DNA of 64,000 bases from Acidobacteriaceae bacterium. GTDB taxonomy: Bacteria > Acidobacteriota > Terriglobia > Terriglobales > Acidobacteriaceae. The position numbers and the translations under genes are program-made. The DNA lies in NCBI GenBank assembly GCA_035933805.1, contig DASYYO010000279.1:233-64232 (forward strand), given 5' to 3'. The notes beneath the pieces are model-generated. The model was not told the origin of the DNA. It saw only the letters and a program-made list of their open reading frames with translations, and searched no databases. Shown piece after piece: positions 8,975 through 64,000 of the stretch (position 1 is the stretch's first letter; each line of letters opens with the position of its first letter).

Positions 8975-8980
8975 CGGTTT

Positions 8981-9066
8981 GCTCCTCAAAGATTATGCGG
9001 GAAGACGAGAGTAAGCGGGAGCACGGCAATGGAGCGGCTCCTCAAACGGATCGCGGGAAGAGAGGG
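8981..9066. repeat. two ~30-nt direct repeats (gctcctcaaa-N6-gcgggaaga-gag) 56 bp apart
   Basis: Copy 1 spans 8981-9011 and copy 2 spans 9037-9066. On the minus strand each copy carries TTTGAGGAGC; copy 1 is the Shine-Dalgarno of the aldo/keto reductase. Confidence 0.7.
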
Positions 9067-9106
9067 TTTCGCATGGGGGGCGAAAGGCGCTCTCCCGCGG
9101 TTTTTT
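9052..9106 (+). terminator. orphan rho-independent terminator-like hairpin on the plus strand
   Basis: Outer stem CGCGGGA(A)GAG / CTCTCCCGCG (10 bp, one bulge). Inner stem TTTCGC/GCGAAA with a 7-nt loop. Followed by G plus TTTTTT (9101-9106). No plus-strand gene lies upstream. Confidence 0.5.
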
Positions 9107-9179
9107 GCTCCTGCCCAAGCTCTTTGCGGCGGAGAGCACGCGCCGCGGCATGGGATCGGCAAATGAACTAACATAAGAG

Positions 9180-9612
9180 AAGCAGGTGGGCCGGACGGTC
9201 GCTGCCCGGGCGCTCGCGCGTTCCGGGGAGAGGAAAGTCCGAACTCCGCAGGACAGCGTGCCGGATAACGTCCGGGATTTGAGCGTCAAGGCTCAAAGAC
9301 GGCCAGTGCCACAGAGAAGATACCGCCTCGGCTTCTTCGGGAGCCGCGGTAAGGGTGAAAAGGTGCGGTAAGAGCGCACCGCGCCGGCTGTAAAGCCGGT
9401 GGCAGGGTAAACCCCACGCGGAGCAAGACCAAATAGGGAGGGAATCCGACGGCCTGACCCGGGCCGCGGATGCGTGCCGGTCCGGTGCGCCAACCCGGGT
9501 TCCCGCTTCGGCGGGTGGGAAACCTCCGGGTAGGTCGCTTGAGCGGCGCAGCGATGCGCCGCCTAGAGGAATGATCGTCCACGACAGAATTCGGCTTACA
9601 GGCCCTCTTGCA
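9180..9612 (+). ncRNA. rnpB: RNase P RNA, bacterial type A
   Basis: Contains GAGAGGAAAGTCCGAAC, GGTAAGGGTGAAAAGGTGCGGTAAGAGCGCACCG and ACAGAATTCGGCTTACAGGCC near the 3' end. The P1 helix pairs GCAGGTGGGCC (9182-) with GGCCCTCTTGC (9601-9611). Ends are accurate to about 5 nt. Track ORFs 9286..9696(-) and 9293..9493(-) lie inside it and are spurious. Confidence 0.9.
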
Positions 9613-9617
9613 AACGC

Positions 9618-9661
9618 GGCCCCGCGGCTCTGAACGGAGCAGCGGGGCCTCTCGTTTTTTC
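9618..9661 (+). terminator. rho-independent terminator of rnpB
   Basis: GGCCCCGC (9618-9625) pairs with GCGGGGCC (9642-9649), with inner GCTC/GAGC pairing, followed by TCTCGTTTTTT. Confidence 0.75.
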
Positions 9662-9722
9662 GCGTTTTCCCGGCAAACGGCTACACTCCTAATCACCGGA
9701 CGGACAGCCGGCGGCGGCTTCC

Positions 9723-10949
9723 ATGGGATTCCTCGAAGGCATCAAGATCGCGCTGCAGTCGCTGTGGGCCAACAAGCTGCGCTCCTTCCTTACGCTGCTG
9801 GGAGTGATGATCGGCGTTGCGGCCGTCATCATGGTGATCACGCTGGTGAACGGCGCCAACAAGTTCGTGGCCACCAAGGTCTACGGCTATGGAGCGGACG
9901 TGTTTACCGCGTCCAAGCAGCCGGCGGTGGTGTTCAGCGACGCCGAGTACACGAAATATCAGAAGCGCAAGGATCTGAAGATCGACGACTACCGGGACGT
10001 AGCGGCGAAGTGCCTGCACTGCGCCGCTACCGGCGCGATGGCCAACGTCACCGGCAAGGTGGTGTACGAGAACCACTCGAGCACCGATACGGATATCCGC
10101 GGGTGGACCTGGTCGATGCCGCCCATCTACAACATGAACATCGAGCGGGGGCGGGGATTCGTGCCGATCGACGATGAGCGCCACAGCCATGTGGCCATCA
10201 TCGGCGCCGACATCGTGGACAACCAGATGGGCGGGGAAGACCCAATCGGCAAGGAGATCCGCGTGGATGGCGAGCACTACCGGGTGATCGGGGTCGGAGA
10301 GCGAAAGGGCAAGACGCTTGGCCAGAGCCAGGACAACTGGGTGGCCGTGCCGCTGACCACTTTTCTGAATGAGTACGGCTCCAATCGCAGCCTGACGATC
10401 TATGGGAAGGCCAACGGGGTTGGCGATCCGCTGGAGCTGGCTTCAGGCGAGATGCGAACCATCCTGCGCGGACGCCGCCATGACGCTCCCGGCGCAGAGG
10501 ACAGTTTTTCGATCGATACAAATGCCACCTTCGTCGGGATATGGCAGAGCATTAGTTCCAGCTTCTCGGCGGTGTTTATCTCGCTGGCTGCGATCTCCCT
10601 GGTGATTGGCGGCATCGTGATCATGAACATCATGCTGGTAAGCGTTACGGAGCGGACGCGGGAGATCGGTGTACGCAAGGCCCTGGGAGCGCGGCGGAGA
10701 GACCTCATGCTGCAGTTCCTGATCGAATCGGCGACGATGGCGCTGATCGGCGGCCTCATCGGAGTGCTGGGCGGGGTCGCCTTTGCCAAGATCATTACGC
10801 TGGTGGTCGGGTTTCCTTCCGACATCCAGGCATGGCCGGTGCTGCTGGGTCTGTTGATGGCCACGGCGGTGGGCGTCTTCTTCGGCGTGTATCCGGCGCG
10901 CAAGGCGGCGATGCTCGATCCGATTGTGGCGCTGCGGTCCGAGATCTAG
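9723..10949 (+). CDS. ABC transporter permease, MacB/FtsX family
   Basis: N-terminal LQSLWANKLRSFLTLLGVMIGVAAVI, a large periplasmic domain, and a C-terminal FtsX motif (MLVSVTERTREIGVRKALGARRRD). Confidence 0.85.
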   Translation: MGFLEGIKIALQSLWANKLRSFLTLLGVMIGVAAVIMVITLVNGANKFVATKVYGYGADVFTASKQPAVVFSDAEYTKYQKRKDLKIDDYRDVAAKCLHCAATGAMANVTGKVVYENHSSTDTDIRGWTWSMPPIYNMNIERGRGFVPIDDERHSHVAIIGADIVDNQMGGEDPIGKEIRVDGEHYRVIGVGERKGKTLGQSQDNWVAVPLTTFLNEYGSNRSLTIYGKANGVGDPLELASGEMRTILRGRRHDAPGAEDSFSIDTNATFVGIWQSISSSFSAVFISLAAISLVIGGIVIMNIMLVSVTERTREIGVRKALGARRRDLMLQFLIESATMALIGGLIGVLGGVAFAKIITLVVGFPSDIQAWPVLLGLLMATAVGVFFGVYPARKAAMLDPIVALRSEI

Positions 10950-10980
10950 ACAGGGAGCCGCGAAGGCGCCTGGAGATGCG

Positions 10981-12240
10981 ATGAAGCTGGGGGACACAAA
11001 AGAACCGATCCGCATGGCAATGGATACGCTGCGCTCGAACAAGCTGCGCTCCGGCCTCACCATGCTGGGCATCATGATCGGCGTCACCACGGTGATCCTG
11101 ATCTCCTCGGTGATCAACGGGCTGACGGGCAATGTCGATTCGCTGATCCAGTCCCTGGGGTCGAATGTCTATTGGGTCTTCCGCTTTATCCCGTTCGGAA
11201 TGCGGCCCACCACGGAGATGCTGACCAGAAAGCAGTTGACCTATGACGACGCGGCCGCCATGCGGACGCTGCCTCATGTGGTCGCCGTGGACCCCTCCCA
11301 GCAATACCGGACGGCGACCGGCCATGTGGGAGATTTCTCCGTGAAGTACCAGGGCCGCAAGGTGCAGAACACGCTTCTCGAGGGCGACTCAGAGGAGCAG
11401 CCCAAGGTTTACGATCTGGATCTGCGGGAGGGGCGCTTTTTCTCCGAGGAGGAGGCGCGCCGGCGAGCCAATGTCGCGGTTCTGGGAAGTGACACCGCGG
11501 ATGAGCTTTTTGGCGATCAGCCGGCCGTCGGAAAAGAGGTGGATATCGGCGGGGAGATATTCACGGTGATCGGGGTTCTGCAGAAGCAGAAACAGGTCTT
11601 CGGCGGGGGCAAAAATCCCGCTGACAACTCCGCCCATATGCCGCTGTTTACCTTTCGCAAGCTGCATCCCGAGATCCTCGACTATTGGATCAGCGTGAAA
11701 TATGACGATGCGAAGAACAAGCTGGCCGTGGAAGACGAGCTGCGCGAGCTGCTGCGCCGGAGGCGAAAACTCCGCGCCGACCAGCCCGACAACTTCGCGA
11801 TCTTTACCGCGGATGCATTGCTCGATCTGTGGAACTCTTTAACCAGCGGACTCTTTATCTTTCTGGTCGCGGTTTCGAGTGTAGGCCTGATGGTCGGCGG
11901 CGTCGGCGTCATGAACATTATGCTGGTCAGCGTGACGGAGCGTACCCGGGAGATCGGCATCCGCAAAGCCGTGGGGGCGACGAAGAGGAATATTCTTTTC
12001 CAGTTTACGGTGGAGGCGGTCACGCTCTGCGCGCTGGGAGGGCTGATCGGGATTCTGGCCGGCGGCGCGCTCACCCTGGCGGTGAAGCTGATTGTGGGGA
12101 CGGTCCTGCCGGCGCAGATGTCGATTGCCTGGTCCGTGATTGCCTTTACCATCTCCTGCGCGATCGGCCTGCTTTTCGGCATCTATCCCGCATGGAAGGC
12201 GGCGACGCTCGACCCCATCGAGGCTCTTCGCCACGAATAG
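10981..12240 (+). CDS. ABC transporter permease, MacB/FtsX family (paralogue of the preceding gene)
   Basis: Lies in ORF 10924..12240; the likely start is ATG 10981 (MKLGDTKEPIRMAMDTLRSNKLRSGLTMLGIMIGV). C-terminal MLVSVTERTREIGIRKAVGATKRN. Confidence 0.85.
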   Translation: MKLGDTKEPIRMAMDTLRSNKLRSGLTMLGIMIGVTTVILISSVINGLTGNVDSLIQSLGSNVYWVFRFIPFGMRPTTEMLTRKQLTYDDAAAMRTLPHVVAVDPSQQYRTATGHVGDFSVKYQGRKVQNTLLEGDSEEQPKVYDLDLREGRFFSEEEARRRANVAVLGSDTADELFGDQPAVGKEVDIGGEIFTVIGVLQKQKQVFGGGKNPADNSAHMPLFTFRKLHPEILDYWISVKYDDAKNKLAVEDELRELLRRRRKLRADQPDNFAIFTADALLDLWNSLTSGLFIFLVAVSSVGLMVGGVGVMNIMLVSVTERTREIGIRKAVGATKRNILFQFTVEAVTLCALGGLIGILAGGALTLAVKLIVGTVLPAQMSIAWSVIAFTISCAIGLLFGIYPAWKAATLDPIEALRHE

Positions 12241-12454
12241 AGCAGGTTTCCTATCGCTATGCTCCACCGAGATCTGAGAAGTGCGGCTTTTCCTGATAAA
12301 AACCCGCGTAGAGGGTAGCGGCTCCGGGGGTATACCTGGGTGTACCCCTACAGGAAATCCGCCTTAGCGCCAGGGGCCGAGCGCCGGGCCACCGGGCGGC
12401 GGCTGGAGTTCACTTTGGAAATGGCAGGGAACCAAATAGACTGAGACGGTTCCC

Positions 12455-13627
12455 ATGCTACCCCTCGTCATCGCCGCGTTTACGACCTTTCTGACGTGCG
12501 CCGGCCTGGGATATTACCTGCTTGCCTTGTGGAGCGCGCGGGCGTTCTACCGCCAGTTTCAGGCACCGCTGCCGGATTTCGAGCCGGGCGTCAGCATTTT
12601 AAAGCCGGTCAAGGGCCTGGACCCGGACATGTATGCGAGCTTCGCCAGCCACTGCCTGCAGGAGTATGGCGGCCCTTACGAGATTCTCTTTGGCGTCCGC
12701 AGCGTGGATGATCCGGCGGTGGCGGCGATCGAGCAGCTGCAGGCGGAGTTTCCCGACCGGGCCATCCGGCTGGTGCTCTGCCCGGAGCTGCTGGGCGCCA
12801 ACGGCAAGGTCAGCAACCTGGTGCAGATGCTGGAGCACGCCGCCTATGACTATGTGCTGATCAACGATAGCGACATCACGGTATCGCCTTACTACCTGCG
12901 CCGCATCATGAGCTGGTTCCAGGCGCCGAGGAAGAAGGGCGGCCGGGTGGGCATGGTGACTTCCCCTTACCGGGGAAGGGCCCATGGAACGATCGGGTCG
13001 CGCATGGAAGCGCTGGGCATCTCGACCGACTTTATCGCCGGAGTGCTGACGGCGCGGCAGATCGAGGGCGGCATTCACTTCGGGCTGGGAGCTACGCTGG
13101 CGGTCTCCCGCGAGGCGCTGGAGGCGATCGGAGGCCTGGCTCCCCTGGTCGATTACCTGGCGGATGATTACGAGCTCGGGGCGCGCGTCTCGCGCAAGGG
13201 CTTTGAGGTGGCACTGAGCCCCGAAGTCGTCGAGACCTTTGTTCCGGCCTACCGGTTTTCGCAGTTCCTGGCTCATCAGATCCGCTGGAGCCGCAGCACG
13301 CGCGACTCCAGAAAGCTGGGCTATACCGGCATGGTCTTCACCTACGGTCTGCCCTGGGCGATGCTGAACTTCATCGCATCAGGAGCCAGCCTGACCAGCA
13401 TCGCGCTCCTGAGCATGGCTTTGCTCACTCGCGTGACGCTGGCGCTGACCGTGGGCGTAGGTGTGGTGGGCGACGTCCAGGTGCTGCGCGACCTGTGGCT
13501 GCTGCCGGCGCGCGATCTGGTGGCCATGGGCATCTGGATCTGGAGCTACGCAGGGAATACGGTCGCATGGCGCGGCCAGCGCTTCTTTTTGAAAGACGGC
13601 AAGCTCAGCCGGCTGACCGCGTTTTAA
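12455..13627 (+). CDS. family-2 glycosyltransferase, ceramide-glucosyltransferase/HpnI-like
   Basis: N-terminal TM helix, VSILKPVKGLD, DSD (INDSDI), the QxxRW motif (HQIRWSRS) and C-terminal TM helices. Confidence 0.8.
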   Translation: MLPLVIAAFTTFLTCAGLGYYLLALWSARAFYRQFQAPLPDFEPGVSILKPVKGLDPDMYASFASHCLQEYGGPYEILFGVRSVDDPAVAAIEQLQAEFPDRAIRLVLCPELLGANGKVSNLVQMLEHAAYDYVLINDSDITVSPYYLRRIMSWFQAPRKKGGRVGMVTSPYRGRAHGTIGSRMEALGISTDFIAGVLTARQIEGGIHFGLGATLAVSREALEAIGGLAPLVDYLADDYELGARVSRKGFEVALSPEVVETFVPAYRFSQFLAHQIRWSRSTRDSRKLGYTGMVFTYGLPWAMLNFIASGASLTSIALLSMALLTRVTLALTVGVGVVGDVQVLRDLWLLPARDLVAMGIWIWSYAGNTVAWRGQRFFLKDGKLSRLTAF

Positions 13628-13653
13628 AGGCTGATCCTCCTGAGGGATATGCT

Positions 13654-15498
13654 CTACCGCCGGTTGCTGAGGATCTCCTTGCCGCCGCTTTTTGCGATCA
13701 CATAGAGCGCTCCCGGAAGCTTCGGCACATTCTCCATCTCCGTCCACAAAAAGATGCGTGCCGGTCCGCTCCATAAGCGGGCAAAGGACTCGTCGTTGTC
13801 GAAGATGGCCGGAGCATCCGCGAAGAAGGAGCCGTACCAGAGATTGGAGGAGCGTCCGTTGAGGATCCTGACCTGGCGGCGCAGGTAGAAGCCCAGCGTG
13901 GAGCCGGCCTCATACTCTCCATTGATCTCGACGATATCGCCGGGCTCGAGCTTTGGGCGGATAGCGTCGGCCAGCGCTTTTGAGGAGAGCACCGGCGAAA
14001 AGGTGACCAGGGCGATGTGCGCGGCGATGAGGAAGACGGCCATCATGGCGGCGAGCGAGCAGTTCGCCAGCCGGAGAGATCTTCTGCGCCGCAGGAGCCA
14101 GTTGGCGAGGGTCCCGATGAAGAGAGCGGCAGCGGTCATCCAGAGGGGCGTACGAAATGCGCCCATGGCGCGGCCGCTGAGGTCCAGAAAGTGCCCGAGG
14201 GAGAGCGCGTATTCGGCGGGATTCTGCGAGAGCAGCGTGGAGAGATCGACGCCCGGAGCGGGAGGCTCGGCGTGCAGGGCAAAAAACAGAGCGATGGCGG
14301 CTCCGGCGGCGCCCAGAAAGAACAGAACGGGAGCGATGCGCCGGCCGCCGGCGAGGGCTTCGGGATCGCTCTCCTCGGCTGCCAGCCAGCCGCCGATCAT
14401 GAGAGCCAAAGGGGCAAGCGCCGGCAGCGCGTAATACTCCTGGCGGGTGGAGAAGCTGAAGAAGAGCAGGACGAAGGCCGCCCATAGGCCGAGCAGGAGC
14501 CAGGCCTGCGCGGTGCGCGAGAGGGGCCGGCGATGGAGCAGGCTCCGGAGAGAGATGCGGCGGACGATCGGGACGAGACAGGCGATCCAGAAACAGGCAG
14601 ACCAGAAATAGGCAAACCATGGCGCCAGCCAGACGACGAGCAGGCCCCAGAAGAGCGCCAGCGGAACGGTGTCATAGTCCCGCGGAACGCGTTGATTGAG
14701 ATATCGCAGGTATTGCTCGTTGATGAAATAGAACCAGAAGAAGCCGTGGACATTGCCCGGGGTGGGGGCAAGGCCGGCAGGATGTCCTTGCGCAGGATTG
14801 CGCAGTCCCGCAGCCAGGTGCCAGGGCACGGCAATGGCCAGGAAGATGAGCATGCTGGAGAAGGGATGCCAGCGCCGGAGGTGTCCCAGGTTCCGGGTGA
14901 GCCAGAGAAAGAGGATGACGATGCCCAAAGGGAAGACCAGGCCGATCAGTCCCTTGGTCAGCACGTTGAGCGCGCAGATGGCGGCGAATCCCCATGCAGT
15001 CCAGCGCGAGGGCTGCTCCTCTTCGAGCGAACGCCAGAAGAGCAGCAGAGCGGCCGCAAGCCAGAGGCAGACGATCACGTCGGGAATCATGATGCGCGTG
15101 TAGAGAAAGATTCCGCAGGAGGTGAGCAGGATGAGCGCGGCGTAAAACCCTGCGATCCGGGAGGCGAAGAGGCGGCAGCCGAAGGCATAGACAACGAGGA
15201 AAAGGCCAAGAGCGTAGAGGGCGAGCGGCAGGCGGGCGGCCCAGTCCTCCGGGCCGAAGAGGCGAAAGCTGAGCGCCATGCTCCAGTACATCAGCGGGGC
15301 TTTTTCGAGGTAGCGGATGCCGTTGGCATAGAGAGTGATCCAGTCGTGGCGGACGAGCATCTCACGCGCGACTTCAGAGTGCACCGAGTCGGCATCATCG
15401 AGCAGCGGCGGGCGGAAGAGCGTAAAGCTGCCATAGAGCAGGAGCCAAAGGCAGATCAGCGCGGAGACGTGTTTTTTTTGCAGAGCTTCCATGGACAC
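13654..15498 (-). CDS. ArnT/PMT-like glycosyltransferase (GT39/GT83 type), polytopic membrane protein
   Basis: 614 aa with more than 10 TM helices. The N-terminal loop motif PPLLDDADSVHSEVAREM...YLEKAPLMYW is typical of ArnT/PMT-family lipid-linked sugar transferases. Confidence 0.75.
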   Translation of the reverse strand: MSMEALQKKHVSALICLWLLLYGSFTLFRPPLLDDADSVHSEVAREMLVRHDWITLYANGIRYLEKAPLMYWSMALSFRLFGPEDWAARLPLALYALGLFLVVYAFGCRLFASRIAGFYAALILLTSCGIFLYTRIMIPDVIVCLWLAAALLLFWRSLEEEQPSRWTAWGFAAICALNVLTKGLIGLVFPLGIVILFLWLTRNLGHLRRWHPFSSMLIFLAIAVPWHLAAGLRNPAQGHPAGLAPTPGNVHGFFWFYFINEQYLRYLNQRVPRDYDTVPLALFWGLLVVWLAPWFAYFWSACFWIACLVPIVRRISLRSLLHRRPLSRTAQAWLLLGLWAAFVLLFFSFSTRQEYYALPALAPLALMIGGWLAAEESDPEALAGGRRIAPVLFFLGAAGAAIALFFALHAEPPAPGVDLSTLLSQNPAEYALSLGHFLDLSGRAMGAFRTPLWMTAAALFIGTLANWLLRRRRSLRLANCSLAAMMAVFLIAAHIALVTFSPVLSSKALADAIRPKLEPGDIVEINGEYEAGSTLGFYLRRQVRILNGRSSNLWYGSFFADAPAIFDNDESFARLWSGPARIFLWTEMENVPKLPGALYVIAKSGGKEILSNRR

Positions 15499-15653
15499 GG
15501 AGGATCGCTGGGAACATCTTCGGTTTCTGTGGCTTCTCCCAGCTTATCGGGCAAACTCCGGTTCCTGCGCGACTATCTGGATTCCCCTCCGGGCCTGTTC
15601 CCAAGTGCCGAGCCGGGCGGGGAATCAGGCGGAGTCTTCCGCAGAGGCAGGCG

Positions 15654-16805
15654 ATGCAAAGACGATATAGTGAAGGAACGAAGGCCATGGCAGCGGAGAC
15701 GGCAACTACGCGGACGAACGACGCAGCGGGGGCGCCGGGAACTGCTCTGCTCTACAACGATTGGTACCCGGCGGTGCGCAGCGGGGGTTTGCGCGGCCGC
15801 AGGATGACCACGACCATGCTGCTGGGAGTGCCGCTGGTTCTGGGCCGCAAAGAGGATGGCGCGCTGTTTGCGATGCGCGACAGCTGCCCGCATCGCGGCA
15901 TTCCTCTCTCCTGCGGATGGTTCGACGGCAGCGCGGTGACCTGCAAGTATCACGGGTGGGCGTTTGAGCCGGAGTCCGGGCAATGCATGGAGATTCCTTC
16001 GCTCACCAGCCGGGATGAGTTTCCCAGCCGCATTTATGCTGGAGCGTTTCCCTGCCGCGAGGCCGACGGGTATGCCTGGGTATATATGCCCAAACCGGGC
16101 AGCGGGCGAGTGCGGATGGAGGCGCGCGAAACGCTTCCGCCGGTGCCCGAGGTGCCTAAGTTCGGCGGCAAGTTCCGCACGGCGCACCTGACCGCGGAGC
16201 TGCCATGCAATGTCGATCACGGAATTATCGGGCTGATGGACCCGGCGCACGGCCCCTTTGTTCACCAGGCATGGTGGTGGCGCTCCCGCCGGAGCATTCA
16301 CGAGAAGGAGAAGCATTTCGAGCCGATTGCCCAGGGCTTCCGCATGTCGGCCCATGTGCCTTCAGCCAACAGCGCACCTTACAAGCTCTTAGGCGTGTAT
16401 GGTGAACCGATCGAGACGACGATCGATTTCGTGCTACCCAATCGCCGCTATGAGACGCTGCGCTGCGGTTCGAAGTGGTTTTCCAGCCTGACGACGGTGA
16501 CCCCGACCTCGGCCAACCAATGCCGCATCGACGTGTGCGGAGCGTGGAACGTCTTCTACCGCATTCCATTTGTCACAATGGCGGCAAAGTTTTTCGGGAA
16601 CCGCTTTGTGCGCCAGGACCAGGTCACGATGATCCAGCAGGCGCAAGGCTTGAAGTTCAATCCCGGGCTGATGCTGATTGACGACGCCGACCGGCCCGCG
16701 AAATGGTACTTCGCCCTGAAGCGCGCGCGTCTGGAGGCGGAGGAGACCGGCCGCCGGATGGAGCATCCGATGGACGGCCCGGTGACGCTGCACTGGCGCA
16801 GCTGA
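15654..16805 (+). CDS. Rieske [2Fe-2S] non-haem iron oxygenase (PaO/Tic55-like)
   Basis: Rieske motif CPHRG-x15-CKYHGW. The start is uncertain; ATG 15687 is also possible. Confidence 0.8.
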   Translation: MQRRYSEGTKAMAAETATTRTNDAAGAPGTALLYNDWYPAVRSGGLRGRRMTTTMLLGVPLVLGRKEDGALFAMRDSCPHRGIPLSCGWFDGSAVTCKYHGWAFEPESGQCMEIPSLTSRDEFPSRIYAGAFPCREADGYAWVYMPKPGSGRVRMEARETLPPVPEVPKFGGKFRTAHLTAELPCNVDHGIIGLMDPAHGPFVHQAWWWRSRRSIHEKEKHFEPIAQGFRMSAHVPSANSAPYKLLGVYGEPIETTIDFVLPNRRYETLRCGSKWFSSLTTVTPTSANQCRIDVCGAWNVFYRIPFVTMAAKFFGNRFVRQDQVTMIQQAQGLKFNPGLMLIDDADRPAKWYFALKRARLEAEETGRRMEHPMDGPVTLHWRS

Positions 16806-38814: not shown

Positions 38815-38890
38815 GCCGACGTAGCTCAGTTGGTAGAGCAGCTGATTCGTAATCAGCAGGTCATCGGTTCAAGTCCGATCGTCGGCTCCA
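38815..38890 (+). tRNA. tRNA-Thr (anticodon CGU), CCA encoded
   Basis: Acceptor GCCGACG/CGTCGGC, D arm TAGCTCAGTTGGTAGAGC, anticodon stem GCTGA/TCAGC with loop TTCGTAA, T arm ATCGG-TTCAAGT-CCGAT, discriminator T, then CCA. Confidence 0.93.
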
Positions 38891-54840: not shown

Positions 54841-55830
54841 ATGTATGCGCGAAAGGTGGCCTTCTTGTCTTTGATCCGACCCCTTGTTCTTTGCCTGCTG
54901 GTTGCGCTTGGTGCAGGCTGCAAGGCTCAGAATGCCGCTCCCGCCGCCCCGATTCCCCTTACCCCGCAGCTCCACCGGCGAATTGAGGTGCTGGTGCGTT
55001 CGCAGTTCGAAGTGCCCCCGAATGTGGACGTAACCATCGGGACAATCAGCAAGAGCGAGTTCCCTGGCTATCAGACGCTGCCCATCACCTTCTCAGGAAA
55101 GGGGCAGAGCTCGACGGTCAATTTCCTCCTCTCCAATGATGGCAACACCGTTGCGCGGCTGGAGAAGTTCGATATCAGCCATAGCCCGATGGAGATGATC
55201 ACCACCGAGGGGCGTCCCATACGCGGGGCTCCGGGGGCAAAGGTCACGATTGTAAATTTTGATGACCTGGAATGCCCCTACTGCGCGCAGATGCACGCCG
55301 AGCTCTTCCCGGCGACTGCCGACCGGTACAAGGGCCTCGTCAAGTTCGTCTACAAGGATTTTCCCCTGGTGGAGATTCACCCCTGGGCGATGCATGCGGC
55401 GGTGGACGCCAATTGCCTGGCGGAACAGAACGGCCAGGCCTACTGGAATTTCGTAGACTACGTGCACACGCATGCCAGCGAGATTACCGGAGCGGCGCAC
55501 GATGCGAAGCTGTCGGAGCAGACTCTGGATAAACTCGTCCATGAGGAGGGCCAGCGCTCCGGGCTGGATCTCGGCAAGCTCGACCGCTGCACCGCGAAGC
55601 AGGATGAATCCGCTGTGAGAGCCTCGATGAAACAGGGAGACGCACTCGGGGTGAACGGCACGCCGACGATGTTTATCAATGGAGAGCGGATCTCCGGGGT
55701 GCTGCCCCCATCCTTGCTGTGGACGGCCATCGATCGCGCACTGCGATCGGCTGGAGTGCAGCCGCCGCAGACGGCGGAAACTCCGGCGAATGCAGGCGGC
55801 AAGGCCGCCGAGGCCGCCCCAGGCAAATAG
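54841..55830 (+). CDS. DsbA-family thiol:disulfide oxidoreductase lipoprotein
   Basis: Lipobox LVALGAGC and thioredoxin-fold active site VNFDDLECPYCAQMH. Confidence 0.8.
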   Translation: MYARKVAFLSLIRPLVLCLLVALGAGCKAQNAAPAAPIPLTPQLHRRIEVLVRSQFEVPPNVDVTIGTISKSEFPGYQTLPITFSGKGQSSTVNFLLSNDGNTVARLEKFDISHSPMEMITTEGRPIRGAPGAKVTIVNFDDLECPYCAQMHAELFPATADRYKGLVKFVYKDFPLVEIHPWAMHAAVDANCLAEQNGQAYWNFVDYVHTHASEITGAAHDAKLSEQTLDKLVHEEGQRSGLDLGKLDRCTAKQDESAVRASMKQGDALGVNGTPTMFINGERISGVLPPSLLWTAIDRALRSAGVQPPQTAETPANAGGKAAEAAPGK

Positions 55831-55834
55831 AGAC

Positions 55835-55886
55835 GGCTGGGCAGCGGCAGGCCATCCGCCGGCTGGGCAGCGGCAGGCCATCCGCC
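55835..55886. repeat. perfect 26-bp tandem duplication (2 copies plus a 5-nt partial third)
   Basis: GGCTGGGCAGCGGCAGGCCATCCGCC occurs at 55835-55860 and again at 55861-55886, followed by GGCTG. It starts 5 nt after the dsbA-like stop. Confidence 0.95.
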
Positions 55887-55913
55887 GGCTGCGGAAGGAT
55901 CGAGGGAGAACGA

Positions 55914-57017
55914 TTGCTACGATCAGGGCTTCAACCCGTTTTACAACCAGCGGCCGCCGGTAAGATCTCGCGCGGATCCGCAGCCTGGGCAGGCTTCGCC
56001 CTGCTGACGACTCTCGTGGCGGCCGGCTGCAAGCACTCTTACGGGCCGGATGTGGCGGCCGTCGTCAACGGGCATCCCATCCAGACTGCGGACGTCGAAA
56101 AGTATTACCGCGACAACCTGGGGAGCACGCAGCAGCAGCCGAGCAAGGAGCAGGCGCAAGCCACGCGGCTGAACATTCTCCGCCAGTTGATCGATGACGA
56201 GATCTTGCAACAACGGGCAGCCAATCTGCACCTGGTGGCCACCGACGAGGAGGTGGACGCGAAGCTGGCGGAGATGAAGGCGCCTTACACCCAGGAGGAG
56301 TTCGACCAGCGTCTGAAGGCCTCCGGGCTGTCGCTGGACGATCTGCGCCGCCAGATTCGCCAGAACCTGACCTCGAACGAGCTGCTGAACAAGGAGATCG
56401 TCTCCCGAATCAACATCACCGACGCGGATATCACGAACTTCTATAACACCAACAAATCTCAATTCAATTTCATCGAGCCCAAGTATCACATCGCCGAGAT
56501 CGTGGTGACCACGCAACCGGCCAAGATGCAGCAGGGCCCAAACCTGCAGAACAGCAAAGCCGGCAGCGACGCTGAAGCGCGGAAGAAGATCGATATGCTG
56601 CACGGACGGCTGGAGAGCGGAGATGATTTCGCCAATGTGGCGATGAACTTCTCCGAGAGCACGAACGATGCGAGCAACGGCGGCGACATGGGCCTGATTC
56701 CGGAATCCAGCCTGCGCAGCGACCCCACGGTGTACGCCGCGATCTCCAAGCTCAAGCCAGGGCAGATGACCGACGTAGTGCCACTGATCCCTCCGGGGCA
56801 GAAGGCGCCCGCGGGGTACGCGATCTACAAGCTGCTGGAGATTGAGCCCTCAGGGCAGCGCGAGCTCAACGATCCCCGGGTGCAGCAGGATATCCGGCAG
56901 CAGTTGCGCGATGGCCGGGCGCAGCTCCTGCGCGCCGCCTATTACGAGATGCTGCGAGACCAATCGCAGGTAGAGAATTTTCTGGCTGAGAAGATCTTCA
57001 AGAACGGCGCGCAGTAG
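55914..57017 (+). CDS. SurA-like periplasmic chaperone / parvulin-type peptidyl-prolyl isomerase
   Basis: In frame with ORF 55719..57017. The proposed TTG start at 55914 precedes the lipobox LTTLVAAGC; the start is uncertain. SurA N-domain-like region plus a PpiC domain (DFANVAMNFSESTNDASNGGDMGLI). Confidence 0.7.
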   Translation: MLRSGLQPVLQPAAAGKISRGSAAWAGFALLTTLVAAGCKHSYGPDVAAVVNGHPIQTADVEKYYRDNLGSTQQQPSKEQAQATRLNILRQLIDDEILQQRAANLHLVATDEEVDAKLAEMKAPYTQEEFDQRLKASGLSLDDLRRQIRQNLTSNELLNKEIVSRINITDADITNFYNTNKSQFNFIEPKYHIAEIVVTTQPAKMQQGPNLQNSKAGSDAEARKKIDMLHGRLESGDDFANVAMNFSESTNDASNGGDMGLIPESSLRSDPTVYAAISKLKPGQMTDVVPLIPPGQKAPAGYAIYKLLEIEPSGQRELNDPRVQQDIRQQLRDGRAQLLRAAYYEMLRDQSQVENFLAEKIFKNGAQ

Positions 57018-57859: not shown

Positions 57860-60800
57860 ATGAAACTGAAGATGATAGACGTAAAGAATCAACTGCATGT
57901 GCATAAGGTAAGTGCCGCGCCGCGGTGGCGGCGTCGCATCGGAATGCTCCTGTCGACCCTGGCGCTGTCTGCTGCATGCTTCGCGCAGGTCGAGCGCGCG
58001 ACCATTACGGGAACGCTGACCGATAAGAACGGAGCGGTTGTCCCCGGGGCAACGGTCCATGTCATTCAAGAGAGCACGAACGAGACGCAAAATCTGCAGA
58101 CGGATAGCGCCGGGGAATACACGGCCAGCAACCTGACGCCCGGCAGTTACACCATCGAAGCGGAAAAGGAAGGCTTCACCAAGCGGCTCTATAAAAACTT
58201 CGTCGTGCAAGTCGGCCAGACCGCGCGCCTGGATATGGTGATGGATGTCGGCTCGGTGACTCAGTCGGTGGAAGTGACCGGGGCCGTTCCCATTCTTCAG
58301 AACGAGACTGCCTCGGTCGGGCAGGTGATTACTCCGACGGCCGTGCAGCAGTTGCCGCTCAACGGAAGAAACATGACGCAGCTGGCGGTGATCGCGCCCG
58401 GGGTGACCGGATTGAACTATGCGCCGACCAATACCATCGGGTCCGGAATAAGGCCAGATGAATTGCGGCCTGGCGGTACGACCATCGAGGCCAATGGCGC
58501 GCGCGACAGCGCGAACAAATTGCTCCTGGACGGCGTGGACGACACCGAGATGATCGCGCAGACGCAGATCGTGCGTCCGAGCGTCGAGTCTCTTCAGGAA
58601 TTCAACATCATCACCAGCAATGCCGGTCCGGAATACGACCGCGGCGGCGGCGCTATTCTGGTCACCAGCACCCGTTCGGGCTCCAATGATCTCCACGGCT
58701 CGGTCTACGAATACATCCGCAACTCCGCGGTGGATGCGAAGAACTATTTCGTTACAGCCAACACGCCCATTCCGCTCTACCGGTTGAATGATCTCGGGGG
58801 AAGGCTGGGCGGCCCGATCAAGCGGGATCGGGCGTTCTTCTTCGTGAATTACGAAGGGTATTTTGAGCAAGCCGGAGGAACCCAGGTCAGCACTGTGCCG
58901 ACCATGGCGGAAAGGCAAGGTAACTTTCAGGGTGTCGCGAATATCTACGATCCGCTGACGACGGTTCAATCCGGCTCAACCTACAAGCGGACCCAGTTTG
59001 CCAATAACATCATTCCGGCATCGCGGTTCGATCCGATCGCATATCAATTGGTCAACGCCTATCCGTTGCCGCAAACCGCCGCGCTGGTGAATAACATTGT
59101 TACCTACCCGATCAAGAAGAGCAATGATAACCGCGGCGACGCCCGCGTGGATTACCAGATATCTCCAAGCCAGACCTTCTTTGCGCGCTACTCGATCGAC
59201 GATACGCAGATAAAGATGCCGAATACGTTCAACGACATCATCGGCGGCAACGAGGGAGCCTTTTCAGGCCCGGAGGCAGCTCGCGGGCAACAGGGAGTGC
59301 TGGCCTATAACAAAGTCATCAGCTCGAATCTTGTCGGGGAATACAGGTTCGGGTTCAACCGGTTCAGCCTGTTTCTCCTGCCGTCCCCATTGACGTCTCC
59401 GATCTGGGCCGAAATTCCAGGGAGGACGACGATCCCCGGCTTTTCGCCGAGCGGTTCCGGTCCGGGCCCGGTGGCGCCCATCATCAGCCCAGCCGGCTTC
59501 GGGGGGATGGGCAACTCGCGATCCGAGCCGTTGATCCGGCGTGAACATCTTTGGGAAAACATCGGGGATATCTCCTGGCAGAAAGGGAAGCACAACTTCA
59601 AATTCGGCATCGATACGCTTCATCATCTGATCAGCGAGAGCGACTCGCCTCCGGGACAGAGCCCATTCGGGCGCTTCAATTTCGACAGCAATTTTTCGAA
59701 CAATCCAGCGTCTCCGACGGGCACGGGCAATTCCATGGCCTCGTTCCTGCTCGGTTTTCCTTCGGCCACGGTACGCGATCTGTTTCTTCCCGGAACAGCG
59801 CATGTCTTCGCTGACGAGTACAACGTCTTTGCCGGCGATATCTGGCGTATTACGCCGAAGCTGACTCTCAATATCGGGCTTCATTACGAAGTCGATACGC
59901 CGTATGCCGATGCCCACGATTACTGGGTCAATTTCAATCCAGTCAATGCTGCGGTTGAGATTGCCGGCAAAAATGGCGTTTCGAAGACGGCAAACTGGCA
60001 GACGGACTACGGCTCGATCGGTCCGCGTGTCGGCTTTGCCTACACGCTGGATGCAAAGACAGTCTTCCGCGGCGGCTATGGAGCATTCTATGATCCCCAG
60101 GCAAACGCTGGAACGACGATACGCCAGGAGAGGCAATGGCCATTCGATCTGGTCTATGCACTTTCTCCGGGCTCGCTCTTCCCGTCCAATACGGTCTCTC
60201 AGGGGTTCCTGACTCCGGCGCAGATTCCGGCCGCTACCTTCGCCAACCCGTTCGGCACGCTGCAGGGAATCGACCACCATTTCAAGAACGCCTCCACTCA
60301 GCAATACAATTTGAGCGCCCAGCGGCAGTTAACCGGACACTCCTCGTTCACGATCGGGTATGTGGGCGCTATCAGCCGGCACTTATCCTGGCATAATCCC
60401 ATCGATCAGCCGCTTCCGGGGCCGGGTAACATCCAGGCAAGGAGAGAATATAATTCCGAGTATCCCAACGTAACCGCGATCACTTACCTTGAGTCGGTTG
60501 GCGTGGGATCTTATAGTTCGCTGCAAACCAGCTTCCAGCAGCAGTTATCCCATGGGTTCTTCCTGACCGCGAACTACGTCTGGTCGCATACGTTCGACAA
60601 TTCTCCCTCGGACGGAGGGGCGGATGGTCCGATTCCCCAGGATCCGACCAACCGGAACGCGGACTATTCCTCCTCGAACAACGACATCCGGAACCGGGTG
60701 AACGTCTATGGGACCTATGAGCTGCCGTTCGGGCCTGGACGGGCTTTCCTCAACAGCAATTCGTTTCTGAACCGGTTTGTCGTGGGCGGCTGGCAGGCCA

Positions 60801-61228
60801 ACGGCATCTTCGTCGGCCAATCGGGTCTGCCATTTACCGTGACCATCAGCGGGACACCGACCAACACCGGCGCCAGTTCGAGCCGGGCGGACGTGGTCGC
60901 TGGAGTGCCGCAATATCCGGCGAAGAAGACGCTGCACGAATGGTTCAATCCCGCCGCGTTCATTGCTCCGACTGCGTACAACTGGGGCAACGTGGGCAGA
61001 AACTCTCTTCGCGGACCCGATGAGATCGACGTCGATTCATCGGTGGAGAAGCATTTCCCAATTACGGAAGGGACTGCTCTGCTCTTCCGGTTGGAGTTCT
61101 TCAACATGCTGAACCATCCTCAGTTTCAGATTCCTGCGGCGACGATCAATGCCGGGGGCGCGGGGACGATTACAGGCACATCGAATACTGCGCGCCAGAT
61201 GCAGGCGGCGCTCAGGCTCACGTTTTAA
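57860..61228 (+). CDS. TonB-dependent outer-membrane receptor with N-terminal CarboxypepD_reg-like domain
   Basis: Signal peptide, ATITGTLTDKNGAVVPGATVHVIQESTNETQNLQTDSAGEYTASNLTPGSYTIEAEKEGF, a plug-like region (NGRNMTQLAVIAPGV), a long beta-barrel and a C-terminal ...AALRLTF. Confidence 0.9.
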   Translation: MKLKMIDVKNQLHVHKVSAAPRWRRRIGMLLSTLALSAACFAQVERATITGTLTDKNGAVVPGATVHVIQESTNETQNLQTDSAGEYTASNLTPGSYTIEAEKEGFTKRLYKNFVVQVGQTARLDMVMDVGSVTQSVEVTGAVPILQNETASVGQVITPTAVQQLPLNGRNMTQLAVIAPGVTGLNYAPTNTIGSGIRPDELRPGGTTIEANGARDSANKLLLDGVDDTEMIAQTQIVRPSVESLQEFNIITSNAGPEYDRGGGAILVTSTRSGSNDLHGSVYEYIRNSAVDAKNYFVTANTPIPLYRLNDLGGRLGGPIKRDRAFFFVNYEGYFEQAGGTQVSTVPTMAERQGNFQGVANIYDPLTTVQSGSTYKRTQFANNIIPASRFDPIAYQLVNAYPLPQTAALVNNIVTYPIKKSNDNRGDARVDYQISPSQTFFARYSIDDTQIKMPNTFNDIIGGNEGAFSGPEAARGQQGVLAYNKVISSNLVGEYRFGFNRFSLFLLPSPLTSPIWAEIPGRTTIPGFSPSGSGPGPVAPIISPAGFGGMGNSRSEPLIRREHLWENIGDISWQKGKHNFKFGIDTLHHLISESDSPPGQSPFGRFNFDSNFSNNPASPTGTGNSMASFLLGFPSATVRDLFLPGTAHVFADEYNVFAGDIWRITPKLTLNIGLHYEVDTPYADAHDYWVNFNPVNAAVEIAGKNGVSKTANWQTDYGSIGPRVGFAYTLDAKTVFRGGYGAFYDPQANAGTTIRQERQWPFDLVYALSPGSLFPSNTVSQGFLTPAQIPAATFANPFGTLQGIDHHFKNASTQQYNLSAQRQLTGHSSFTIGYVGAISRHLSWHNPIDQPLPGPGNIQARREYNSEYPNVTAITYLESVGVGSYSSLQTSFQQQLSHGFFLTANYVWSHTFDNSPSDGGADGPIPQDPTNRNADYSSSNNDIRNRVNVYGTYELPFGPGRAFLNSNSFLNRFVVGGWQANGIFVGQSGLPFTVTISGTPTNTGASSSRADVVAGVPQYPAKKTLHEWFNPAAFIAPTAYNWGNVGRNSLRGPDEIDVDSSVEKHFPITEGTALLFRLEFFNMLNHPQFQIPAATINAGGAGTITGTSNTARQMQAALRLTF

Positions 61229-61370
61229 AAGGATTCGCGGGTGCGGCAAGGCCAGGATTTTCTTGAAGGAAGATCCGTATCCAGCCGCGCCGCGCGGGTC
61301 TATATTTATCAGGAAATTTGGCTTGAGCCGCCGAGCGGCCGTTTTCGTTCCTCGTGTTCAGGAGAAGAAC

Positions 61371-62471
61371 GTGTCACCTATGATTGATATCACCCAACGA
61401 AGAAAAGCGCTGCTGCCGATGATGCAGACGCAGGCGGCAGTGAAGCGGGCCGAGGGACCGCATCCGATTTCTGAATTGCGCGCCTTTGCGATGCGCCCAT
61501 CCGGGACAGAGAACGCCTACGTTCTTCTCCAGGTACGAACCCGGTCTGGACTCACGGGATATGGCGAGTGCAAGGCGGTTTCTCCAGCCGACATCAAAAA
61601 CGCCAGGGCGGCGCTGGTGGGCGGGTCCGCATCCGCTTATGAGGCGCTGGGCTCCGAGGCGCCGGAGAGTGTCCGGCCGGCTTTGGACATGGCCTGCCTG
61701 GATATTCTCGGCAAAGCCACGAAAGCCCCGGTATATCGCGTGCTGGGCGGCCCAACGCGGAATAAGGCGCGGGCGATCGCGCGGCTCGCCGGCTCCTCCG
61801 ATGACGAGCTGCGCCAGGATCTGCAGAAGCAGCTTGCCCTGGGCTTTCGCGCCTTTCTCGTTCCTATTCCCTCGCCGGCGGCGCGCAATCAGGGCAGCGC
61901 TTTTGTGCACGCGGGAGTAGCGAGATTGGAGGCGATGCGGGCCGCAGCCCCGAATGCTGATTTCGCTCTGGAGGGAAGCGACGATCTCACGCCCGGCGAC
62001 AGCGCCAGCCTTGCCGCCGCAGTCGAGCGGATGCATCCCCTTTGGTTCGATCAGCCCTGCCCTGTCTCCAACCTCGCCACGCTGCATAAGGTTGCCGATG
62101 AGACGGTGGTTCCGCTGGGCTTTGGCCGCGATCTCTCCTCTGCCGGGACGTTTCAGGATCTTCTGCGGGACGGCCTGGTCGATCTGCTTCGGCCCGATCT
62201 GCTGGTCCACGGGATCTCGGGCGTTCGCCGGCTCGCGGCCATGGCCGAGACGTACTACGTCGCTGTCGCGCCCTGGCATGCAGGCGGACCGGTCGCGACG
62301 GCGGCAGCTCTCCACACCGCGGCCAGCATTCCAAATTTCTTTATTGCCCAATTGTCCAGTTCAGGCGCCGGCTCCGCGCCGCTGCGGGATGGATTCTTCG
62401 AGCTGCCCAAGGGGCCCGGGCTGGGCGTCGAGATCGACGAAAAGGAATTGGGGAGAAACGAGATCGCATGA
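61371..62471 (+). CDS. enolase-superfamily (mandelate racemase/DgoD-like) paralogue with non-canonical active-site residues and a weak RR leader
   Basis: In frame with ORF 61149..62471. GTG 61371 lies 6 nt after GGAGAAGAAC, and ATG 61380 is also possible. Overall fold motifs are present (GLTGYGECK, LDILGKATKAPVYRVLGG, PWHAGGP). By eye alignment, the DgoD positions vDfH, EEP and GER read LEGS, DQP and GRD. Confidence 0.7.
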   Translation: MSPMIDITQRRKALLPMMQTQAAVKRAEGPHPISELRAFAMRPSGTENAYVLLQVRTRSGLTGYGECKAVSPADIKNARAALVGGSASAYEALGSEAPESVRPALDMACLDILGKATKAPVYRVLGGPTRNKARAIARLAGSSDDELRQDLQKQLALGFRAFLVPIPSPAARNQGSAFVHAGVARLEAMRAAAPNADFALEGSDDLTPGDSASLAAAVERMHPLWFDQPCPVSNLATLHKVADETVVPLGFGRDLSSAGTFQDLLRDGLVDLLRPDLLVHGISGVRRLAAMAETYYVAVAPWHAGGPVATAAALHTAASIPNFFIAQLSSSGAGSAPLRDGFFELPKGPGLGVEIDEKELGRNEIA

Positions 62472-63823
62472 ACCGAAGAAGCTTCCTAGGAAAAGCAGCG
62501 GCGCTTGCAGCGGCCGTACCCGGCTCTCGAATCGCAGCCGCCGTCACCAGCTCTCACACCCCTGATCTCTGTGGCTGCGACCCGTTCATGGCTGCGCCCG
62601 GGAACGGCGTGCCTGCGGGGAGCGAGGCCTTTGCCGATGTCAGCTCGGGTTTGAAGGTCACCGGGATGAAGGTCTTTGGCGTTTCATTGACGCCCGACTC
62701 CGATCGGCCATACGTCTTCGTCAAGCTGGAGACCAACCAGGGCCTGGTGGGTTGGGGCGAGGGAACTCTGGAGGGCAAAGCGCAGGCTGTCATCTCCTGC
62801 ATTCAGGACTTTCACGACTTTATCGTCGGCGCGGATCCGATGCAGGTGGAGCATCTCTGGGAGTCGATGTATGTCCAGAGCTTTTATCGCGCAGGCCCGG
62901 TGATGGGCTCCGCCATCTCGGGGCTCGACCAGGCGTTGTGGGATCTTCGCGGAAAGTTCCTTAACGTGCCCGTCTATCAACTGCTCGGCGGACCCCTCGA
63001 TCCTCGCGGAGTGCGCGGCTACTACCACGCCGAGAACGCGAGAACGGATGAAGATCTCGCGCGATTGCGCGAGACGGCTCTGCAGGAGGGGGTCTCCTGC
63101 TTCAAGATCGGACTGCCTGACCAGGACTATGAATGGATCGAGACAAACGCCAAGATCAATCGCGCGATTCAGCATATGCAGCGCATCCGCGAGAAGCTGG
63201 GAGACTCGATCGACATCGCCGTGGACTTTCACGCCAAGACCAGTCCCAGCGTAGCCTCCATCATCGTGAAGGAGGTTGAGCCGCTGCACCTGCTCTTTGT
63301 GGAGGAGCCCTGCCCTCCGGAAAATGTGCAGGCGATGGCCCGCGTCTCGCGCCGTTCGACTACGCCGATTGCAACCGGCGAGCGGCTGGTTGCGGCTTAC
63401 GGCTGCCGCGAGCTCATCGAGATGGGGGTGGTCGATATTCTGCAGACAGACGCGAATCACGTCGGCGGAGTCACCGGCCTCTGGAAGGTGGCGGCCATGG
63501 CGAATATCTCGAACGTCTCGATGGCGCCTCATGCCTGTGAAGGCCCGATCGGCGGTGTCGCAACCCTGCATGTGGACTCTTCCATGCCGAACTTCCTGAT
63601 CCAGGAGATCTGCAGCTTCGTCAAGCCTGGAGACAAGGAGCGGATCTGGGAAGAGTGGTTCGGCTTTCCTCCCATGCGCATGGTCGACGGCCGGTTTCCT
63701 CTGCCATCGAAGCCGGGTCTTGGCTTTGAGCTAAGCGAGGCCTCTCTTGCCAAGTATCCGTTTGGAGGATCGAAGCCAATGGCGCGCGTCTTCCACCAGG
63801 ACGGTTCTGTGGCAGAGTGGTAG
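62468..63823 (+). CDS. D-galactonate dehydratase-like enolase-superfamily enzyme with a twin-arginine signal peptide
   Basis: The ATG overlaps the upstream TGA (ATGA). Leader MNRRSFLGKAAALAAAVPGSRIAAA. GWGEGTLEGKAQAV, DQALWDLRGKFLNVPVYQLLGG, and the catalytic/metal motifs VDFHAK, VEEP, TGER, DANHVGG and APHA are all present. Confidence 0.85.
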   Translation: MNRRSFLGKAAALAAAVPGSRIAAAVTSSHTPDLCGCDPFMAAPGNGVPAGSEAFADVSSGLKVTGMKVFGVSLTPDSDRPYVFVKLETNQGLVGWGEGTLEGKAQAVISCIQDFHDFIVGADPMQVEHLWESMYVQSFYRAGPVMGSAISGLDQALWDLRGKFLNVPVYQLLGGPLDPRGVRGYYHAENARTDEDLARLRETALQEGVSCFKIGLPDQDYEWIETNAKINRAIQHMQRIREKLGDSIDIAVDFHAKTSPSVASIIVKEVEPLHLLFVEEPCPPENVQAMARVSRRSTTPIATGERLVAAYGCRELIEMGVVDILQTDANHVGGVTGLWKVAAMANISNVSMAPHACEGPIGGVATLHVDSSMPNFLIQEICSFVKPGDKERIWEEWFGFPPMRMVDGRFPLPSKPGLGFELSEASLAKYPFGGSKPMARVFHQDGSVAEW

Positions 63824-63848
63824 AGGGGACGGCAGGAGATGAGATCCT

Positions 63849-64000
63849 ATGTCGCTCGCAGGCAGGCTCGATTGGTCGCGGCGTAAGTTTCTGAAAACGG
63901 CGGCCGGCGCAGCGCTTCTCGGCGGAGGCGGCCTTCTCAGCGGATTTCGCCGCCTGGCCGCCGCTGAGCTGGGGCGCAGAAAGATCCGCGATGTGCAAAC
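63849..64000 (+). CDS. 5' end of a further Tat-signal ORF (partial, runs off the window)
   Basis: Not in the track because there is no stop. ATG 63849 gives MSLAGRLDWSRRKFLKTAAGAALLGGGGLLSGFRRLAAAELGRRKIRDVQ, with a consensus SRRxFLK motif. Its identity is unknown; the KIRDV strand resembles the first strand of enolase N-domains. Confidence 0.5.
   Translation, partial: MSLAGRLDWSRRKFLKTAAGAALLGGGGLLSGFRRLAAAELGRRKIRDVQ

Follow-up and report, generated by a model that had tools for sequence, protein, structure and literature searches.

Enolase-superfamily acid-sugar dehydratases are textbook cytoplasmic Mg-dependent catabolic enzymes, and in the Entner-Doudoroff variants and the Weimberg, Dahms and DgoD pathways the dehydration takes place inside the cell. 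This step has been described as intracellular also in pathways that begin with oxidations in the periplasm (PMC11252243). Does the same hold for a stretch of 64,000 nucleotides from an Acidobacteriaceae bacterium (assembly GCA_035933805.1, contig DASYYO010000279.1, positions 233 to 64,232; the whole stretch is termed the window hereafter)? Close to the end of the window lies a TonB-dependent receptor gene (T), and behind it, in the same orientation, come three genes of the enolase superfamily (A, B and C) whose products have an Arg-Arg pair near the N-terminus. A preliminary description of this DNA had placed these open reading frames (ORFs) here, called B a DgoD-like enzyme, read twin-arginine translocation (Tat) leaders in front of two to three of the enolase ORFs, that of A being the weaker one, and suggested conversion of the substrate in the periplasm, beside the importer. 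The ORFs were indeed found at the positions given there, and their Pfam matches agree with the assignment. Based on the analysis below, we propose that T-A-B-C is probably a periplasmic acid-sugar processing operon, in which B and C are Tat-exported dehydratases fed by T, and A hitchhikes on B.

All four genes are on the forward strand. T (57860-61228) encodes a receptor of 1122 amino acids with an N-terminal CarboxypepD_reg domain (3.3e-21) and an OMP_b-brl_4 beta-barrel (7e-239). ORF A (61371-62471, 366 amino acids) is an enolase-superfamily paralogue with a degenerate active site, which matches MR_MLE_C (7e-37) and MR_MLE_N (6e-8). ORF B (62468-63823, 451 amino acids) is a D-galactonate-dehydratase-like protein with a Tat leader and the same two domains. 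The window holds only the first part of ORF C (63849-64000), so the region was read past the window end to the contig end, about 4 kb more. Upon this extension the complete C gene was seen, ending at the window-equivalent position 65141 and encoding 430 amino acids with a Tat leader, MR_MLE_C (1e-47) and MR_MLE_N (2e-13). It is followed by a convergent ArsR-family gene and then a gene for an FG-GAP/LamG protein, after which the contig ends. A spacer of 142 nucleotides separates T from A, which starts at a GTG codon with AGGAG 5-6 nucleotides ahead. The start codon of B overlaps the stop codon TGA of A as ATGA, as read directly in the sequence, and C begins 25 nucleotides after B, with AGGAGA 9 nucleotides ahead of its start. 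The gene order, the spacing, the ATGA overlap and the convergent genes after C make T-A-B-C one unit, a predicted four-gene operon on one strand. A, B and C share the enolase fold, with an N-terminal capping domain and a (beta/alpha)7-beta barrel, as the MR_MLE_N and MR_MLE_C domains in all three and the confident AlphaFold2 (AF2) domains for A and B confirm.

The export signals were searched with TIGR01409, the curated Tat model of NCBIfam (cut-off 16.7 bits), and with the shorter Pfam model TAT_signal (gathering score 22.7). The signal peptide of B, MNRRSFLGKAAALAAAVPGSRIAAA (62468-62542), starts with MNRRSFLGK, bears a likely AxA cleavage site and scored 17.2 bits with TIGR01409, and the leader of C (SRRKFLK) scored 22.2 bits, both above the cut-off. 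For B and C the 120 closest homologues each were aligned, with identities of 70-91% in the B set. The RRxFL motif is kept in 115 of the 120 B homologues, followed by a variable Ala/Gly-rich stretch, and in 112 of the 120 C homologues, where the rest of the leader varies. This invariant RR motif inside an otherwise variable hydrophobic leader is the pattern of a signal peptide, by which the leaders of B and C are judged to be genuine Tat leaders. The hydrophobic region (h-region) of C consists of 17 uncharged residues and ends in LAAA|E, whereas that of B has 11 uncharged residues here, compared to 16 in most homologues, and ends in IAAA|V. AF2 modelled the enzyme domain of B with confidence, at a mean predicted local distance difference test score (pLDDT) of 80, and left residues 1-46 below 50. 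The genome also encodes TatC (PF00902, 230 bits, contig C258). We infer from these sequences that B and C are exported by the Tat pathway.

In addition, B and C are not the sole enolases with such a leader. In the 4.7-Mb genome, 14 of the 22 enolase-superfamily ORFs start with an RR leader: B, C and twelve others with RRxFLK-type leaders on contigs C374 (three), C151, C77, C411, C309, C65, C100, C254, C71 and C103. A loose RR regular-expression screen of all long ORFs flagged at most 6.5%, an upper bound for the background, as many of the hits are Sec or transmembrane starts; it missed B owing to the 11-residue h-region. The proportion of 14 in 22 against at most 6.5% indicates that the leaders are no chance event. 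In the paralogue tree, the RR-leader paralogues are spread over several clades. Leaderless paralogues of the same genome, such as those on contigs C283 and C38, open directly at the first strand with MKI(T/V). Two gene pairs elsewhere in the genome are candidates for exported dehydratase-aldolase pairs. On contig C411 (14115-16525), a Tat-leader enolase gene overlaps the gene of an RraA-like aldolase with a signal peptide, and on contig C9 (8928-11320) a Tat-leader UxuA-like dehydratase gene adjoins a second RraA-like gene, also with a signal peptide.

Could the RR leaders be non-functional? Remnant Tat motifs are known on enzymes that are not exported, such as NarG, and the leaders of B and C might likewise be vestigial, result from wrong starts or form uncleaved anchors; the enzymes would then act in the cytoplasm or at its border, tied to the receptor by transcription alone. 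Such a reading gains from the Pfam TAT_signal scores, 10 bits for B and 16.4 bits for C, which are both sub-threshold, from the narrow pass of B with TIGR01409 and from its short h-region in this genome. Wrong starts had already been named in the preliminary description as a way for the RR motif to be lost, but the B frame has no start codon earlier than position 62468, and for B and C alike more than 110 homologues share the leader in their protein sequence. Moreover, both h-regions are succeeded by an AxA-type site, a single genome has 14 paralogues with RR leaders, and pathway enzymes encoded beside B in related loci have ordinary Sec signal peptides. The coexistence of leaderless paralogues indicates that the leader marks a distinct class. 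Taken together, we regard non-functional leaders as very improbable.

The next question is what B would catalyze. B scored 335.1 bits with NF010624, the galactonate dehydratase equivalog model (cut-off 311). Its nearest solved relative by sequence is 3rr1 (E 3e-74), and a Foldseek search with the AF2 model yielded a template modelling (TM) score of 0.88 to 3rr1, with 34% identity in the structural alignment. Catalytic positions were read from alignments of the A, B and C families, with 120 homologues each. In B, the residues Lys213, Asp253, His255, Glu279, Glu305, Asp328, His355 and Glu380 are invariant. Lys213 is the lysine of strand 2, Asp253, Glu279 and Glu305 are the metal ligands 1 to 3 at the ends of barrel strands 3, 4 and 5, His255 is the acid, His355 (strand 7) and Asp328 (strand 6) form the dyad that serves as general base, and Glu380 is the remaining glutamate. 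They match, at an offset of 70, the known DgoD set, namely Asp183, His185, Glu209, Glu235, Asp258, His285 and Glu310. Judged from these alignments, B has the full catalytic set of a D-galactonate dehydratase, and the DgoD-like assignment of the preliminary description holds for it.

B differs from leaderless enzymes in its cysteines. The linker after the signal peptide harbors a CxC motif (Cys35-Gly-Cys37, 62570-62578), which is nearly invariant in the alignment and can be recognised in the majority of the 120 homologues. Six further cysteines are conserved in the B clade, Cys111, Cys211, Cys282, Cys313, Cys357 and Cys382, several of which sit 2-3 residues from catalytic residues. None of the eight cysteines was seen in the leaderless DgoD paralogues that were compared, in the C family or in the family of a fourth enolase paralogue described below; in A-type partners, a cysteine is common only at the Cys282 position (42 of 50). 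The eight cysteines of B would fit an extracytoplasmic protein. Conservatively, they are read as disulfides for periplasmic stability, and a metal or cluster site instead of disulfides is possible. The linker with the CxC motif is unplaced in the AF2 monomer (pLDDT below 50). We also considered CxC as the lipobox of a Tat lipoprotein and rejected it: a few Bryobacter- and Solibacter-type sequences resemble L-S-G-C, but most are D-L-C-G-C-like and lie well past the AxA site.

C shows a different active site. Its catalytic residues are Lys200, His249, His251, Glu275, Glu301, Asp324, His351 and Glu376. The lysine, the acid histidine, the two glutamate ligands and the His-Asp dyad (His351-Asp324) are kept, whereas the first metal-binding aspartate is replaced by His249, giving HxH in place of DxH (VHCHWEYD) in C and all its 120 homologues. 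The HxH site suggests that C may bind a transition metal in place of Mg. The nearest solved relative of C is 2qq6 (1e-51); 2qq6 and a further solved relative, 2pod, are both uncharacterised.

For ORF A a weaker leader of this kind had been suggested, and here the suggestion did not stand. Its N-terminal extension (61371-61454), about 28 amino acids with the motif QRRKALL, gave no match to TIGR01409 or Pfam TAT_signal. The motif is followed by PMMQTQAAVKRAEG; by reading, this is a stretch of 12 residues with Gln and Thr that lacks both a hydrophobic core and an AxA site. AF2 modelled residues 7-23 as a low-confidence helix. A basic ERRKALL-type motif is kept in the A family of Acidobacteriaceae, whereas Solibacter- and Bryobacter-type partners carry an unrelated charged extension or start directly at the first strand (MKITTLETF). 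On sequence grounds we regard A as lacking its own export signal; that its leader is a weak, lineage-specific export signal appears improbable.

A is degenerate in its active site as well. The eight catalytic positions are occupied by Leu163, Glu201, Ser203, Asp227, Arg253, Asp276, Trp302 and Gln327. Compared to B, the catalytic lysine, the acid histidine and the histidine base are gone, and the third metal ligand is changed from Glu to Arg253. Trp302 and Leu163 stand at the dyad and lysine positions, so that neither the His-Asp dyad nor the lysine of strand 2 is kept, and Ser203, at the position of the acid histidine, is variable within the A family. A scored 141.6 bits with NF010624, under the cut-off of 311. 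An exhaustive search with A returned 97 representatives of 1.84 billion at E <=1e-30, and about 30 A-family cluster representatives from this search have the degenerate pattern, the third metal ligand being replaced by Arg or Lys. Despite the loss of these residues, the A family has a mean column identity of 74%, and the AF2 model reveals that the fold is kept (mean pLDDT 76.5). The family-wide loss of residues, together with the conserved sequence and the kept fold, marks A as a predicted pseudoenzyme under selection and not a third dehydratase. The suggested export of enolase enzymes beside an importer is thus narrowed to B and C, for which the TIGR01409 scores, the RR conservation, TatC and the signal peptides of neighbouring enzymes in related loci argue, whereas A is most likely non-catalytic.

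How A and B belong together was seen in a scan of GTDB genomes, which gave 80 related loci. These come from metagenome-assembled genomes of Acidobacteriota (Acidobacteriaceae, Bryobacteraceae, Solibacteraceae and broader Terriglobia/Bryobacterales labels) and one Verrucomicrobia contig. An A-type gene lies directly upstream of a Tat-type B gene in 68 of the 80 loci, and in 9 the place is taken by a leaderless, catalytically complete DgoD paralogue. Hence a signal-less partner precedes B in 77 loci, and 3 have none. In the measured subset, the A and B genes overlap by 4 nucleotides in 43 pairs and by 11 nucleotides in 6. Two related loci (L051 and L054, about 8921-11380) contain A-B "fusion" ORFs of 817-819 amino acids. 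As interaction evidence of the Rosetta-stone type these ORFs were rejected, since they arise from frameshifts within A in the assemblies concerned, with the normal C-terminus of A and the ATGA overlap present in the other frame.

This coupling may be explained by two fates of A. Translationally coupled to B, A would most likely form a hetero-oligomer with B and reach the periplasm on the signal peptide of B. Alternatively, A might be a cytoplasmic protein, either an escort or assembly chaperone for the folding and metal loading of B or a protein with an independent new function, and B and C alone would be periplasmic. Tat substrates often have dedicated cytoplasmic partners, the chaperones of the TorD/DmsD/NapD type, A has neither a Tat nor a Sec signal, and tight A-B coupling suits a chaperone as well as a subunit. 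NapD is an example of such a Tat chaperone (PMC4159696). On the other side, A keeps the whole enolase fold with its oligomerising barrel, a better match for a subunit, and the complete leaderless DgoD partner of 9 loci is harder to see as a chaperone. Tat chaperones are not known to be paralogues of their clients, and hitchhiking on the signal of one subunit is established in other Tat complexes, for example PaoABC (PMC4273604). We therefore consider a cytoplasmic A unlikely and favor the hitchhiking of A on B. The stricter version, in which B and A form an obligate hetero-oligomer with the arginine in the lost metal site, A is periplasmic only through the signal of B, and both work within a largely periplasmic non-phosphorylative route of sugar oxidation, dehydration and aldol cleavage in soil Acidobacteria, is put forward tentatively, as a possible but somewhat doubtful extension.

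The link to the receptor is also found beyond the window. T lies directly upstream on the same strand in 27 of the 80 loci, in 26 before the A-B pair and in one abutting B without A. Its identity in these 27 loci is 50-86%, and Bryobacter-type genomes are included, where T reaches only 50%. The T-A-B linkage is conserved from the nearest relatives to Bryobacter-type genomes. C lies within about 1 kb after B in 14 loci. B itself is patchily distributed: of 24 further genomes of its genus, 16 carry it, and it was found in none of 22 genomes drawn from other genera of the family and in none of 16 from a sister family. In a sample of 300 genomes of the phylum, full-length Tat-type orthologues (>=60% identity) were found in two other genomes only, and the remaining matches at E <=1e-60 are more distant relatives.

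The neighbours of B in related loci indicate in which pathway the enzymes might act. In one group of loci, an HpcH/HpaI aldolase, a bicupin and an RraA-like aldolase are encoded, all with classical signal peptides, together with a fourth enolase paralogue and a UxuA-like dehydratase, both with Tat leaders. A second group has the order PQQ (pyrroloquinoline quinone) dehydrogenase with a signal peptide, cytochrome c, leaderless DgoD, Tat-type B, RraA-like aldolase, GSDH-cytochrome c fusion and flavin adenine dinucleotide (FAD) oxidoreductase. The RraA-like aldolase of this cluster has an N-terminal hydrophobic segment, a signal or an anchor. The PQQ-type cluster (loci L056, L065, L071, L078, L079, L082, L084, L085 and L088, at positions of about 5900-16000) stands out as the best candidate for an entire oxidative sugar pathway located in the periplasm. 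Orthologues of such neighbour genes are present in the genome of the window on other contigs.

These neighbours can also be read differently. B and C might be exported and yet act on substrates other than simple aldonates fed by the receptor, such as uronate or aldarate lactones (as cycloisomerases), substrates of epimerisation or racemisation, or products of aromatic ring cleavage. The enolase superfamily is functionally diverse, the solved relatives of C are uncharacterised and its HxH site is unusual, and HpcH/HpaI aldolases, RraA-type (HMG/CHA) aldolases and bicupins, the kinds of gene found beside B, also occur in aromatic meta-cleavage pathways. Against this, B has the full DgoD acid/base and metal set and exceeds the equivalog cut-off, and no ring-cleavage dioxygenase was identified. 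The PQQ sugar dehydrogenases, GSDH and UxuA-like dehydratase encoded next to B suggest sugars as the likely substrates. Therefore, we hold these other substrates to be improbable and retain acid sugars as the proposed ones.

Based on the operon and the related loci, we propose the following route for the T-A-B-C operon. T would import the substrate, or a compound that gives rise to it, through the outer membrane; alternatively, exported PQQ- or cytochrome-linked dehydrogenases would form aldonates in the periplasm, as in pseudomonads. B and C would fold, bind metal and oligomerise in the cytoplasm before being exported in the folded state by Tat, with A probably carried along. In the periplasm, B and C would remove water from sugar acids of the aldonate type, giving 2-keto-3-deoxy acids. 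These acids would then be cleaved to pyruvate and an aldehyde by exported class II aldolases of the HpcH/HpaI and RraA-like types, followed by uptake of the products. The steps before and after the dehydration would be performed by exported aldolases and PQQ enzymes encoded elsewhere in the genome and in related loci. Four parts of the model are inferred from sequence: the export itself, the association of A with B, the nature of the substrate and the role of T in delivering it.

Several observations weigh against this proposal. Besides the sub-threshold Pfam scores of both leaders and the narrow margin and short h-region of B, no inner-membrane transporter, aldolase or sugar oxidase is present at the locus, and the pathway is assembled from other loci. 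The contig stops about 3 kb after C, where the next genes are convergent. An equivalog score at 34% identity to the nearest solved structure leaves the specificity of B unfixed, and A could equally stay in the cytoplasm.

Further features of the region were noted. The T-A spacer contains two short GC-rich hairpins with T-rich tails (61285-61339, forward strand), found by a consensus scan, which might act as partial terminators or attenuators limiting read-through into the enzyme genes. In the promoter and terminator scan, nothing else rose above chance, and the evidence for the two hairpins is weak, as 12 terminator-like sites were found against 7.4 expected by chance. An Rfam search of the window gave no match near the operon; the sole matches are a class A RNase P RNA (9183-9614, 273 bits) and one tRNA (38815-38887). 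Just upstream of T (54841-57017), a DsbA-like thioredoxin protein and a SurA-like peptidyl-prolyl isomerase chaperone are encoded, both periplasmic folding factors. The comparison with a polysaccharide-utilisation locus, made in the preliminary description, failed: no SusD or glycoside hydrolase was found among the ORFs checked flanking the operon (54841-57017 and downstream to the contig end).

In a literature search, no description of exported enolase-superfamily enzymes was found. The present analysis contributes the pairing of A with B, the loss of catalytic residues throughout the A family, the conserved cysteines of B and the HxH site found in C. If the proposal is true, abundant soil Acidobacteria would run the dehydration of sugar acids, and probably also the aldol cleavage, outside the cytoplasm, and many sugars would be funnelled into a few small products ahead of uptake. 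The carbon flow and transporter needs of these organisms, as well as their "galactonate dehydratase" annotations, would then be read differently. Under the stricter version given above, A and B would be the first hitchhiker pair of a paralogue or pseudoenzyme with its active relative, and the enolase superfamily would gain its first heteromeric enzyme of such kind. The conserved coupling of an active enzyme that bears the signal to an inactive paralogue offers a tractable system for the origin of Tat hitchhiking and for pseudoenzyme evolution. The cysteines of B and the His-for-Asp site of C suggest an adaptation to the periplasm or to a different metal.

Compared to DgoD of the mandelate racemase subgroup (3RR1/3RRA, Ralstonia pickettii), B has the same two-domain fold and the same metal ligands, DxH acid, His-Asp base and glutamate. 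B adds to these a 25-residue Tat signal, a linker of about 35-40 residues with the CxC motif and six further clade-specific cysteines. Whereas the E. coli DgoD is cytoplasmic and encoded in the dgoRKADT operon, the gene of B lies downstream of a TonB-dependent receptor gene and has that of an inactive paralogue as its partner. In the Weimberg pathway of Pseudomonas taiwanensis VLB120, a periplasmic PQQ dehydrogenase and a lactonase convert the sugar via the lactone to the aldonate, which is imported by GntP-type transporters to a cytoplasmic dehydratase, so that only the first two steps are periplasmic (PMC11252243). Similar to VLB120, exported PQQ dehydrogenases and cytochromes c are encoded in the loci related to ours. 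In contrast to it, the dehydratase here bears an export signal and is followed by exported aldolases. The operon also resembles SusC/SusD-type polysaccharide-utilisation loci in combining the gene of a TonB-dependent importer with those of putative periplasmic enzymes. It differs from them in having no SusD, glycoside hydrolase or lyase, or regulator, in its T of the Acidobacteria CarboxypepD_reg/OMP_b-brl_4 type, and in its enzymes, which belong to central acid-sugar catabolism and not to depolymerisation. The closest parallel for A and B is given by the Tat hitchhiker complexes, such as hydrogenase-2 HybOC and dimethyl sulfoxide (DMSO) reductase DmsAB. In PaoABC, one subunit has a twin-arginine signal, and its signal-less partners, encoded adjacently, are co-exported (PMC4273604). 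Likewise, B has the signal, and in 77 of the 80 loci the gene just before it codes for A or a leaderless DgoD. The known hitchhiker complexes are redox enzymes with cofactors and unrelated subunits, whereas the putative complex described here would be built from paralogues of a metal-dependent, non-redox dehydratase.

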